This document shows positions 46,503 through 50,300 of a stretch of 64,000 nucleotides of DNA, piece by piece; position 1 is the stretch's first letter, and each line of letters opens with the position of its first letter. The notes beneath the pieces are model-generated. The model saw only the letters and a program-made list of their open reading frames with translations. It had not been told where the DNA came from and made no database searches. This DNA is from Escherichia phage fDHCT2. The translations under genes were made by a program, and so were the position numbers. The DNA is taken from sequence record OR427838.1, one strand, 5' to 3'.

Positions 46503-46694
46503 TTATATTACGAAAATAGCTTTATCACCATTTGCATCAGTGACTTCATAGGTATCTTCGTGGTAAAGTGGAATAATCCAAGTCACACCATCATCAGCAA
46601 TAATATGGATAGCTTCTTGGTCTTTTGATATGATTTCATATTCTTCGAATAACTCGAATACAGAAATCTTAGAGCCCGTACACATTGCACTCAT
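46503..46694 (-). CDS. Hypothetical small protein (start refined to ATG 46694)
   Basis: Track ORF 46503..46712 starts at TTG. Confidence 0.4.
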   Translation of the reverse strand: MSAMCTGSKISVFELFEEYEIISKDQEAIHIIADDGVTWIIPLYHEDTYEVTDANGDKAIFVI

Positions 46695-46890
46695 ATTGTT
46701 CCCTTCTTTCAATCAGTTGGCGATGGGCCTTTTTAAGTTTACGAAGCTGGCGCTTAGTCGGCCGTGCAACATAAGCTTGAGTAGTTACTCGCCCAAAAAC
46801 ACCGTACTTAGGTGAAGGAGAATCGATAAAGACTTCCCACTGGCAGGAGTAACCATATACCGCTTTAGAGAATTGAGTTAAAACAAACAT
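46669..46890 (-). CDS. Hypothetical small basic protein, dispersed paralog 1
   Basis: 73 aa; C-terminal block ARPTKRQLRKLKK. Confidence 0.45.
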   Translation of the reverse strand: MFVLTQFSKAVYGYSCQWEVFIDSPSPKYGVFGRVTTQAYVARPTKRQLRKLKKAHRQLIERREQYECNVYGL

Positions 46891-47327: not shown

Positions 47328-47621
47328 TTACTCACCTGTAACCTCTTTAACGATGTTTTTGTTATCGAAATTAGCGTCACAATACAAAACATAGTTGTAC
47401 TGCATAACACCTGTTGAAGCTAATTGGTCGGACACTTCTTTAACCATGTCAGGACGGTCACGTTTAGTGATGTTCATGATATCGGCATAAATCTGATGTT
47501 CAACATCAGTTTGGTCGGCAGTCATAGACCACTCACAAAGGTCTTTATCCAATCCGGCCGTTACTGGAGCTGTACCACATGATGCTACGGTAAGAATTGC
47601 TGCGATTAATAACTTTTTCAT
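47328..47621 (-). CDS. Exported protein/lipoprotein, 97 aa (size and position like T4 spackle)
   Basis: Signal peptide MKKLLIAAILTVASC; AGGAG SD; early promoter element upstream. Confidence 0.5.
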   Translation of the reverse strand: MKKLLIAAILTVASCGTAPVTAGLDKDLCEWSMTADQTDVEHQIYADIMNITKRDRPDMVKEVSDQLASTGVMQYNYVLYCDANFDNKNIVKEVTGE

Positions 47622-47680: not shown

Positions 47681-47920
47681 TTATTTTAACGAATCTTCCA
47701 AATAAATTTTACGGAATTTACGTTTTGTCTGACGAATCTGACGTTTAGTAGGCTTCACAGGAAATTCGAAGAACTCCACGTATTCCTGTTCATAATCATT
47801 ATGACCTACTGAAAGAACTAGTTCCCAGCTGCTTACGGTGCGTTGGATAAACATATTATGCTTACCAAAAGATTTATTCCAAAAAGAACTAGGAGTTGGC
47901 TTCATTAGTACAATATTCAT
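47681..47920 (-). CDS. Hypothetical small basic protein, dispersed paralog 2
   Basis: 79 aa; C-terminal block VKPTKRQIRQTKRK. Confidence 0.45.
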   Translation of the reverse strand: MNIVLMKPTPSSFWNKSFGKHNMFIQRTVSSWELVLSVGHNDYEQEYVEFFEFPVKPTKRQIRQTKRKFRKIYLEDSLK

Positions 47921-48061
47921 TTATTCCTCGCCTTCATGTTTATGAGCAATTTCTTCGAATTCGTTGTCACAGTCTATACAGGTTGCATTGTCCCAAGCAT
48001 CAAATACTGCTTGGTCTTCGCGGACCGAACAACCACATACTACACATTCTACTTCTTCCAT
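47921..48061 (-). CDS. Zinc-ribbon protein (46 aa, not in ORF track)
   Basis: CVVCGC...CIDCDN; ATG directly follows upstream stop, stop directly precedes downstream ATG. Confidence 0.45.
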   Translation of the reverse strand: MEEVECVVCGCSVREDQAVFDAWDNATCIDCDNEFEEIAHKHEGEE

Positions 48062-48265
48062 TTAGATTTCCTCAATGCGGGCATCATATTCAAAAACTTT
48101 ATTGTCATTAACAAAGGCTTTCACCAGTGCATTATTCACTTCTGCATACTGCACTGTAACCCATTCAATCATTTTTTGGTCACTAACATCCAGCGCAGTT
48201 TCTTTGGTAAACATATTACCGTTTTCAAACCAACCAATAAATACTACGATCTCTAATTTAAACAT
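48062..48265 (-). CDS. Hypothetical small protein, tandem paralog A
   Basis: 67 aa; ends YDARIEEI. Confidence 0.5.
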   Translation of the reverse strand: MFKLEIVVFIGWFENGNMFTKETALDVSDQKMIEWVTVQYAEVNNALVKAFVNDNKVFEYDARIEEI

Positions 48266-48460
48266 TTAGATTTCCTCAATACGTGCATCATGTTCATAAA
48301 CTTCTACGTCATCAACATAGGCCTTAACCAAAATACTATTGACTTCGGCGAATTGGGTAGTCACCCACACAATATCATTTTCACGTACTGAAGCTTCTTT
48401 GGTAGTGGTATCACCGTTATTAAAACAGCATACAAATTTTACCTTAACCAATTTAGACAT
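48266..48460 (-). CDS. Hypothetical small protein, tandem paralog B
   Basis: 64 aa; ends HDARIEEI. Confidence 0.5.
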   Translation of the reverse strand: MSKLVKVKFVCCFNNGDTTTKEASVRENDIVWVTTQFAEVNSILVKAYVDDVEVYEHDARIEEI

Positions 48461-48778
48461 TTAGATTTCCTCGCAGAAGGCCCATTCAGCATGATAAACC
48501 GTAGCGCCTTTAGTATCATTTAAACAAACCACATCCACCGGAGCAATTACACGATAAAGACGAGGTTCTCCTCCCACCGAACGAGCAGCTCGTCCAGCAT
48601 AAATCTTAGCCAAACCAATGTCCTCAGTAAAGAACACACGATTCAAGTTTTTCTTACGACCCGTTTCAGACAGAACTCCTGTTTCCTCAGGAGGACAAAG
48701 CATATTACCAATATTAGCAACACTACAACTTCCATGGTAATACACTTTATATTCCGCTTTACAGTCGATGGTTTTCAT
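48461..48778 (-). CDS. Hypothetical protein (start refined to ATG 48778)
   Basis: Track ORF 48461..48790. Confidence 0.5.
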   Translation of the reverse strand: MKTIDCKAEYKVYYHGSCSVANIGNMLCPPEETGVLSETGRKKNLNRVFFTEDIGLAKIYAGRAARSVGGEPRLYRVIAPVDVVCLNDTKGATVYHAEWAFCEEI

Positions 48779-48790
48779 TTTGTTCTCCAA

Positions 48791-48831
48791 GTTGATAGGT
48801 CCATAGTATCATGCCTACAGGAGAAGTAAAC
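48791..48831 (-). promoter_or_regulatory. Early-type promoter element
   Basis: GTTTAC-N17-TGA-TACTAT-GGACCTATCAAC. Confidence 0.5.
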
Positions 48832-48840
48832 CATTAAAAC

Positions 48841-48863
48841 AAAAAAGGAGCCGAAGCTCCTTA
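48841..48863 (-). terminator. Rho-independent terminator at 3-prime end of gene 41
   Basis: AAGGAGC-UUCG-GCUCCUU hairpin plus U6. Confidence 0.6.
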
Positions 48864-50300
48864 AAATTTGATAGATGCTGCTAAATCATCTAAATCGCTT
48901 CTATTAACACGCGACTGGCGATTGACCTCTGCTTGGCGGTTCATTTCACCTGTGGCCTCACGAACGGTGTTCACTGGGCCTGGGTTGGAATCGTCTTCAA
49001 CTTCGTACCAACGTTGATTTCCTTTCTTAACACCAATCTTAAATTTGTTGTAGTAGCTCTTATCACCATAACGAGATTTAAGCTGCTTAACCATCTGCAT
49101 ACCCATCTGAGCAAATTCTTCTGTCTCGACCACACCCAACATGAAGTCTGCGGTATGTGCAATACCAAAGGATTCAGCAATATCAGCCATATCGATTTCG
49201 GCTGCAACGTTCGCGCCACGAGTAGTCTGGGCTGCAGTCCACAGCAATAATTTCTTCTCTACTGCAAGTCCACGTAGTTCTTCAGCAACCATCTTAATCA
49301 ATCCGTAACTGTTTTCAGAGAAAACTTTCGTACGAGACGATGCACAGATGGCCAAGTAGTCAACGATAACGACCTGTGGGACAAAGTTTTGTTTGAGCTT
49401 GTATTCGTTTAATAATGCACGGAATGTATCGGCATTCGCACCGCCGGTAGGATACTGTTTAATCTTTAAACGACCTAAGGTAGCAGTTGAACGCCATTTA
49501 TCCATCTTAGCTTTATATTCAGGCCACGAGACATGACCATCATCGATATCATCCAGTGATACATCCAGAAGGTTGGCATCGATACGCTTAGCACATACTT
49601 CCTCTGCCATCTCCATGGAGATATAAAGAACATCGTAACCCGATTGAAGGTAATCAGCAGCCAATGAACAAAGACCAAGAGACTTACCTACGTTTGTTCC
49701 TGCTAACAATACGTTTTCAGTACCAAACTCGGCGCCGCCCTTGGTAATCTTATTCAGAATATTAAGACGGAATGGAACCTTACGTGCTTTATCGGAATAA
49801 CTTTTGAATCGTTCTTCATAGTCATCCATCCAGTCATGACCTAATTCAGAATCGAAACAAATCGATAATGCATCACGCATGATATCTGGAATAGCACCAA
49901 TACCTGGAAGTTTTCTATTTTGTTGCTCAACCGGAAGGTCGGCATTAGTTTGGATTTCAATGATTTTTGAAGTTGCATTATACATCGCTGCTTTCTGAAC
50001 GTATTTCTCCGTCTCTTTAACCAACCATTCTTGGTCTTCAGGTCCGGCATTCAGCGAACTTAAAAGCTCTTTAGCGCCTTGGTGTTCAACTTCTGAAAGC
50101 GTACTGTTATCTAATGCAATGCTCAGCGCGTTCTTAGAAGGCACTGCATTATATTCATTGACATGTTTTTTAATTTCTTTGAAAAGGGTCTTTGCAGGAC
50201 CCTGGTCAAAATAAGAATCATTCATATAAGGCCAGACCTTAGTGAAATAATCACTATTGCCTAACAGTTGAGCCAAAATAGTTTCTACCACTTCCACCAC
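48861..50300 (-). CDS. 41: Replicative DNA helicase gp41 (DnaB-like)
   Basis: 479 aa (T4 gp41 475); Walker A GTNVGKS; N-terminus SDYFTKVWPYM. Confidence 0.92.
   Translation of the reverse strand: MVEVVETILAQLLGNSDYFTKVWPYMNDSYFDQGPAKTLFKEIKKHVNEYNAVPSKNALSIALDNSTLSEVEHQGAKELLSSLNAGPEDQEWLVKETEKYVQKAAMYNATSKIIEIQTNADLPVEQQNRKLPGIGAIPDIMRDALSICFDSELGHDWMDDYEERFKSYSDKARKVPFRLNILNKITKGGAEFGTENVLLAGTNVGKSLGLCSLAADYLQSGYDVLYISMEMAEEVCAKRIDANLLDVSLDDIDDGHVSWPEYKAKMDKWRSTATLGRLKIKQYPTGGANADTFRALLNEYKLKQNFVPQVVIVDYLAICASSRTKVFSENSYGLIKMVAEELRGLAVEKKLLLWTAAQTTRGANVAAEIDMADIAESFGIAHTADFMLGVVETEEFAQMGMQMVKQLKSRYGDKSYYNKFKIGVKKGNQRWYEVEDDSNPGPVNTVREATGEMNRQAEVNRQSRVNRSDLDDLAASIKF

Follow-up and report, generated by a model that had tools for sequence, protein, structure and literature searches.

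Two adjacent small genes on the minus strand of the window, which is the whole 64-kb stretch of DNA analysed here, are probably two functional and long-diverged paralogues of dmd (T4 gene 61.5) within the early anti-TA island of a Dhakavirus, which runs from gene 41 to a tifA-like 61.4 gene. Two copies of this known counter-defence gene are uncommon, and the locus does not represent a new kind of gene. By its sequence, the window belongs to a JS98-like, T4-type coliphage in the genus Dhakavirus; the ~1.4-kb stretch spanning both dmd genes matched 154 phage records, with best identities of 92%–96%, all of them Dhakavirus. A literature search found no paper on phage fDHCT2 or on dmd duplication in Dhakavirus.

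Dmd is a textbook phage-encoded antitoxin; to our knowledge, functional tests have been limited to the T4 protein and structures to those of T4 and RB69. RnlA and LsoA are toxin RNases; T4 Dmd, a protein of 60 residues, attaches to their HEPN (Dmd-binding) domain, and in its absence T4 late mRNAs are degraded (PMC5308261, PMC8266594, PMC9391042). Inhibition of RnlA and LsoA by T4 Dmd is direct (PMC5308261, PMC8266594). The equivalent region of T4, which carries dmd and tifA, has been termed an anti-TA island, and T4 61.4 is tifA (PMC9391042).

Layout of the dmd locus

The two genes, termed dmd-S and dmd-L, lie in a cluster with the following features, given from upstream to downstream:

48861..50300, minus strand: gene 41 helicase
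48845..48862, minus strand: terminator-like hairpin with a T-run, immediately 3' of gene 41
48803..48831, minus strand: candidate T4-type early promoter, GTTTAC-17 nt-TACTAT, 5' of orf34, read from the sequence
48461..48778, minus strand: orf34, RB69 orf040c-like, 105 aa from ATG (PHROG 2110, E 1.7e-60)
48458..48472, minus strand: junction 1, orf34 to dmd-S, GAGGAAATCTAAATG
48266..48460, minus strand: dmd-S, divergent 64-aa Dmd paralogue of the 'CC' allele type, protein FVCCFNNGDTTTKE
48263..48277, minus strand: junction 2, dmd-S to dmd-L, GAGGAAATCTAAATG
48062..48265, minus strand: dmd-L, canonical-type 67-aa Dmd paralogue, protein FIGWFENGNMFTKE
48059..48073, minus strand: junction 3, dmd-L to the 46-aa ORF, GAGGAAATCTAAATG
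47921..48061, minus strand: Cys-rich, zinc-ribbon-like 46-aa ORF, directly 3' of dmd-L (PHROG 13952, E 4e-31)
47681..47920, minus strand: gp61.4-like gene of 79 aa, homologue of TifA (ToxN inhibitor), DUF7279 (Pfam PF23945, E 8.6e-20)
47328..47621, minus strand: sp (spackle), closing the small-gene cluster (Pfam PF25676, E 1.1e-42)

A preliminary description of this DNA had reported two back-to-back ORFs of 67 and 64 residues, packed start-to-stop. Their coordinates and lengths proved exact, both lie on the minus strand, and the TAA stop of dmd-S, the upstream gene, directly abuts the ATG of dmd-L. At all three junctions the same 15-mer comprises the codons E-E-I, the TAA stop and the ATG, with a GAGG Shine–Dalgarno sequence 8 nt before the ATG. 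It is found exactly three times in the 64-kb window, against 0.02 expected from shuffles. This layout of Shine–Dalgarno sequence, stop and start would be compatible with translational coupling, and orf34 is predicted to be the first gene of the operon, coupled in this way to dmd-S. The element at 48803..48831, which we take to be a T4-type early promoter from its likeness to the T4 early-promoter consensus, was not called by a generic sigma-70 scan. A search of Rfam found no family at gathering score anywhere within the 64-kb window.

The neighbouring genes have counterparts in related phages. An orf34-like gene is annotated at the equivalent position in JS98, Bp7 and KIT01, the 46-aa ORF keeps its position in relatives, and the counterpart of the gp61.4/TifA-like gene is annotated as 61.4 in JS98. 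The product of orf34 is extremely conserved, with at most one amino acid change between any pair of nine phages at dS up to 0.31. It gave sub-threshold matches to the rifampin ADP-ribosyltransferase Arr (Pfam Arr-ms, E 0.029; NCBIfam rifampin_ARR, E 0.07) and no match to PDB sequences; it may be a minimal ART-like protein within the anti-TA island. A second pair of paralogues is found nearby: the 79-aa gp61.4/TifA-like protein and a 73-aa ORF (46669-46890, minus strand) both belong to DUF7279 (PF23945) and have in common the basic motif PTKRQ(I/L)R..K.

Family assignment and divergence of the two copies

Searches of Pfam assigned both proteins to PF17587 (Dmd, discriminator of mRNA degradation), dmd-L with an E-value of 5.1e-20 (72 bits) and dmd-S with 9.4e-16 (58.3 bits), the gathering cutoff being 27, and both also matched PHROG 2102 (E 5.3e-32 for dmd-L and 8.6e-29 for dmd-S). 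Among PDB sequences, dmd-L matched 5i8j (E 2e-21) and 5hy3_B (E 1.4e-16), dmd-S matched 5hy3_B (E 4e-13) and 5i8j (E 1e-11), and nothing else was found below E 0.09 for either copy; 5hy3_B is T4 Dmd in complex with LsoA, and 5i8j is RB69 Dmd. The AlphaFold2 models (pLDDT 92.9 for dmd-L and 93.6 for dmd-S) both have a ββ-α-ββ fold. At E ≤ 1e-3, Foldseek returned from the PDB only these two structures, with TM of 0.80–0.96 and rmsd of 0.7–1.8 Å; dmd-S gave TM of 0.86/0.96 to 5hy3_B, and dmd-L 0.84–0.94. Both are small single-domain proteins, encoded in a syntenic early cluster from gene 41 to 61.4/tifA and sp as in T4-type genomes. Given that the Pfam scores are far above threshold and that the models match only Dmd crystal structures, the two genes are, contrary to what had been stated, not of unknown function; both are, by sequence and predicted fold, clear members of the Dmd family, which would act as phage antitoxins against RnlA/LsoA.

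In the sequence alignment, neither copy departs from the family at any of the invariant columns. These include a Trp and an Asn of the helix, W35 and N44 in L and W32 and N41 in S, which correspond to W31 and N40 of T4 Dmd. Wan and colleagues reportedly found in 2016 that W31 and N40 of Dmd are needed for LsoA binding; an open literature search did not find the residues of the LsoA–Dmd interface. PADLOC and NCBIfam gave no match for either dmd copy.

The Dmd family has very few members. Searched with its profile, 1.84 billion representatives gave 11 matches, of which seven are small proteins and the other four, long and repetitive, are probably spurious. A word-indexed protein search found four close relatives with dmd-S as query and 17 with dmd-L, and a scan of IMG/VR yielded only genomes already present in GenBank. 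In Escherichia phage fDHCT2, the protein named 'Antitoxin' matches dmd-S with 100% identity; dmd-L has 100% identity with the only Dmd of Esco_phi_B-01 and 97% with those of JS10 and JS98.

The paralogy of the tandem genes was borne out by pairwise alignment, in which 36 of 67 positions are identical (54%) and 72% positive (BLASTP, E 2e-21); the Smith–Waterman score is 161, whereas shuffles (n=2000) score 25 ± 5 with a maximum of 56. The internal blocks described earlier (TKE, W.T.Q.AEVN..LVKA and DARIEEI) are all present in both copies. The differences of S from the aligned T-even-type Dmd proteins are mainly in the N-terminal β-hairpin, where GW is changed to CC or GH and MF to TT or TA; in the window, the hairpin reads GW..MF in L and CC..TT in S. 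Thereby S replaces W12, M18 and F19 (L numbering), which are conserved in all T-even-type Dmd proteins aligned, and its loop before the helix is three residues shorter than theirs. In S numbering, the residues specific to S include C11, C12, T18, T19, I43 and Y48. Given the replacement of three conserved residues, the target of S could be lost or changed.

The preliminary description had taken the pair as recently duplicated. By the Nei–Gojobori method, dmd-S and dmd-L differ over the whole gene by a dS of 1.07 and a dN of 0.30, and their nucleotide identity is 69% (132 of 192, aligned codons); S or L orthologues among dhakaviruses differ by dS of 0.05–0.98. In the identity matrix, dmd-L is closer to the Dmd proteins of VR7 (72%) and RB69 (68%) than to S (55%), the latter value being the same as that to T4 Dmd (55%), and dmd-S has 45%–55% identity with the remaining T-even-type Dmd proteins in the comparison (48% with that of T4). 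In a neighbour-joining tree, the S clade (100% bootstrap) lies outside the group formed by L and the Dmd proteins of VR7, HY01, T4 and RB69, this placement being weak (bootstrap 31%–43%). The synonymous divergence is near saturation and, with the tree and the identity matrix, shows the duplication to be old, not recent. The dS is 1.35 in codons 1–55 and 0.38 in the last 12 codons, and the shared DARIEEI tail is largely explained by the overlap of the last codons with the ribosome-binding site of the next gene and the junction, not by recency.

Both copies are under purifying selection. The ORFs are intact in all 12 loci that carry S and L, save two L copies cut by contig ends. Pairwise dN/dS is mostly 0.04–0.65 for S and 0.09–0.53 for L, and below 1 in all but one pair, the S copies of 04086 and ABTNLsp5 (1.35); the genes are of ~200 nt and the values noisy. 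The flanking genes have lower dN/dS than the dmd copies (orf34 about 0, tifA-like about 0.05, sp about 0.05).

The same data bear on the idea that one gene of unknown function was recently duplicated in situ, with one copy possibly decaying. The tandem abutting layout and the identical C-terminal tails and junctions would agree with such an event. Nevertheless, it is highly improbable in view of the above dS and nucleotide identity, the confident assignment of both copies to Dmd, the single-copy orthologues that each copy has in other phages, and the intact reading frames with dN/dS below 1 bar the one S-copy pair. A recent neutral duplicate is refuted by the divergence and the family assignments. 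A pseudogene reading was likewise rejected, given the intact ORFs, the dN/dS values below 1 in all pairs but one and the high-confidence predicted fold. Of the earlier interpretation, the tandem paralogy thus stands, and the recency and the unknown function do not.

Haplotypes among related phages

The comparison of copy number across related phages, which the preliminary description had proposed, showed that dhakaviruses occur as L-only, S-only and S+L. About 795 phage records encode Dmd, and only four have two matching places. The 399-bp tandem was found whole by blastn in three of 50,697 phage records, ABTNLsp5, 04086 and KIT01; the fourth record, in which Dmd also matches at two places, may be one more genome with both copies or an assembly with terminal redundancy. 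Both tandem genes are already annotated as dmd in KIT01. ABTNLsp5 and SHP1 wrongly call the S copy a 'translational repressor protein', and 04086 has no annotation for it. In single-copy dhakaviruses, either the L or the S allele occupies the identical position between orf34 and the 46-aa ORF. The L-only phages include JS98, JS10 and Esco_phi_B-01, and the S-only phages Bp7, IME08, WG01, QL01, IME341 and vB_EcoM_005; an S-type gene is the sole dmd in about 19 sequenced dhakaviruses.

We classified 38 loci by allele, from phage records and contigs of public assemblies:

S with FVCCFNN ('CC'): L always next; 12 loci, L cut by the contig end in 2
S with FVGHFAN ('GH'): always alone; 16 loci
L only: alone; 11 loci

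The allele type of S is thus perfectly associated with the presence of L in 28 loci. The CC and GH types form sister clades (bootstrap 87% and 98%), and at least three different L alleles occur next to one and the same CC protein. An exact match to the dmd-S protein of the window was not found in the contig index of public assemblies, and its cluster mate P0034 was used in its place for the look-up. The 24 metagenome contigs examined carry this S protein, with L following it in all seven of the places listed. Few sequenced phages have the S+L state, which recurs in metagenome contigs.

Comparison of the window with the L-only phage Esco_phi_B-01, whose L protein is identical, revealed a single clean indel of 195 bp, corresponding to one S cassette, between flanks of 95%–99% identity. 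The 15-mer GAGGAAATCTAAATG is invariant in all haplotypes examined. In T4, recombination at microhomologies of 6–10 bp gives rise to tandem dmd-tifA amplifications (PMC9391042). As such short microhomologies suffice in T4, unequal recombination at the 15-nt junction would, by analogy, be a sufficient mechanism to gain, lose and stack cassettes. The S+L state could be either ancestral, with reciprocal losses, or derived from an unequal crossover between S-only and L-only phages. In one metagenomic locus (L012, SRR36547139), the L copy at about 1696-1899 has the S-type tail VYEHDAR in place of VFEYDAR, a sign that the tandem copies may have undergone gene conversion.

Some further variation was seen around the pair. 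A haplotype without the 46-aa ORF and the tifA-like gene is found in KIT01 (L004, 1696-1959) and in the loci L011 and L028-L037; in it, CDYRSNEK takes the place of YDARIEEI at the end of the L copy, and spackle comes next after a gap of ~60 nt. In ABTNLsp5 (L002, 2737-3114 of the fetched locus), gene 41 and orf34 are separated by an additional 125-aa ORF, which the window and JS98 are without. Several phages with S-type dmd, single or stacked, come from poultry-related sources or avian E. coli (chicken-farm soil or manure, duck faeces, O78 hosts), and the L-only Esco_phi_B-01 comes from a gut sample. The link of the S type to poultry may reflect a toxin repertoire specific to the host population, or sampling bias only.

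Putative function of the tandem pair

In our putative model, orf34, dmd-S, dmd-L, the 46-aa ORF and the tifA-like gene would be transcribed as an operon soon after infection, each being translated from a GAGG ribosome-binding site inside the last E-E-I codons of the preceding gene. As the labile antitoxins of the host decay, RnlA/LsoA-type toxin RNases would be freed. Carrying over the role of T4 Dmd, each ββ-α-ββ protein of ~7.5 kDa would bind to the groove of the HEPN (Dmd-binding) domain of these RNases, and this binding would protect the late mRNAs of the phage from degradation. Over evolution, unequal recombination at the junction would interconvert the L-only, S-only and S+L states.

What the phage may gain from keeping both copies can be proposed with less confidence. 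S and L differ mainly in the N-terminal hairpin and keep the invariant residues, which argues for a wider range of RnlA/LsoA-family toxins; a reasonable, if tentative, proposal is that the two copies cover different toxin variants, which would give the S+L phages a broader anti-toxin range. More speculatively, S might neutralise an RnlA/LsoA-family toxin or another HEPN toxin that escapes canonical Dmd. The S+L pair would then be a stacked broad-spectrum module, and the 15-nt junction a built-in site for swapping or stacking cassettes between co-infecting phages.

Two other explanations of the pair accept both genes as functional. If the second copy only raised the total output of Dmd, S and L would be interchangeable; tandem amplification at the same locus of T4 was indeed selected under toxin-antitoxin pressure (PMC9391042), and every family-invariant residue is kept in both copies. 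However, dosage amplifications are identical and unstable repeats, whereas the two copies here are merely 54% identical with a dS of about 1. Furthermore, the tandem S allele (CC) and the lone S allele (GH) are distinct clades, and their perfect association with the presence or absence of L across 28 loci suggests co-adaptation rather than simple redundancy. We thus consider a pure dosage effect improbable. Alternatively, S might have left the RnlA/LsoA-type toxins altogether for another target in the host, for instance a different HEPN RNase or a defence protein unrelated to them. Being the most divergent T-even-type Dmd lineage, at 45%–55% identity to the others compared, and having the otherwise conserved GW and MF of its N-terminal hairpin replaced, S would suit such a new function. 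Yet S retains the fold and all invariant residues, and the about 19 S-only dhakaviruses would be without any anti-RnlA function, which makes a complete change of target unlikely as well. Two functional dmd paralogues that both act on RnlA/LsoA-type toxins remain the preferred reading.

Comparison with known systems places the pair close to T4 Dmd (gp61.5; 5HY3 chain B; PF17587). Family, size and ββ-α-ββ fold are those of S and L (TM 0.80–0.96), and the neighbourhood is alike, an early operon 3' of gene 41 and 5' of 61.4/tifA. In contrast to the two copies of the window, T4 has a single dmd. Unlike T4 Dmd, both S and L have a C-terminal extension, I-E-E-I, which holds the ribosome-binding site of the next gene, and the conserved GW and MF are in addition missing from S. 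RB69 Dmd (5I8J) is the closest solved structure to L, at 67%–68% identity; as in the window, an orf040c-like gene precedes dmd in RB69, which has one dmd copy and no S-type paralogue.

The dmd-tifA amplifications of laboratory-evolved T4 (Srikant, Guegler and Laub 2022, PMC9391042) share with the window the locus, recombination at short repeats and selection by toxin-antitoxin systems. There, tifA dosage was what selection acted on, and the repeats are numerous, identical and unstable, whereas the window has two diverged copies of dmd alone, kept in natural phages. The 'genomic accordion' of poxvirus K3L (Elde et al. 2012, cited in PMC9391042) follows a similar concept, in which a gene that counters host defence first expands in copy number and then diverges; it differs from the dmd pair in concerning a eukaryotic virus, an unrelated protein and a transient expansion.

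The locus thus reveals natural allelic diversity at dmd, with the L, S-GH and S-CC forms and a rare stacked S+L haplotype. This diversity provides a natural experiment on how phage antitoxins may track diversifying RnlA/LsoA-type toxins, and the locus illustrates how cassettes may be gained and lost at a putative translational-coupling junction. Of practical use, the annotation of the S copy can be corrected in ABTNLsp5, SHP1 and 04086.
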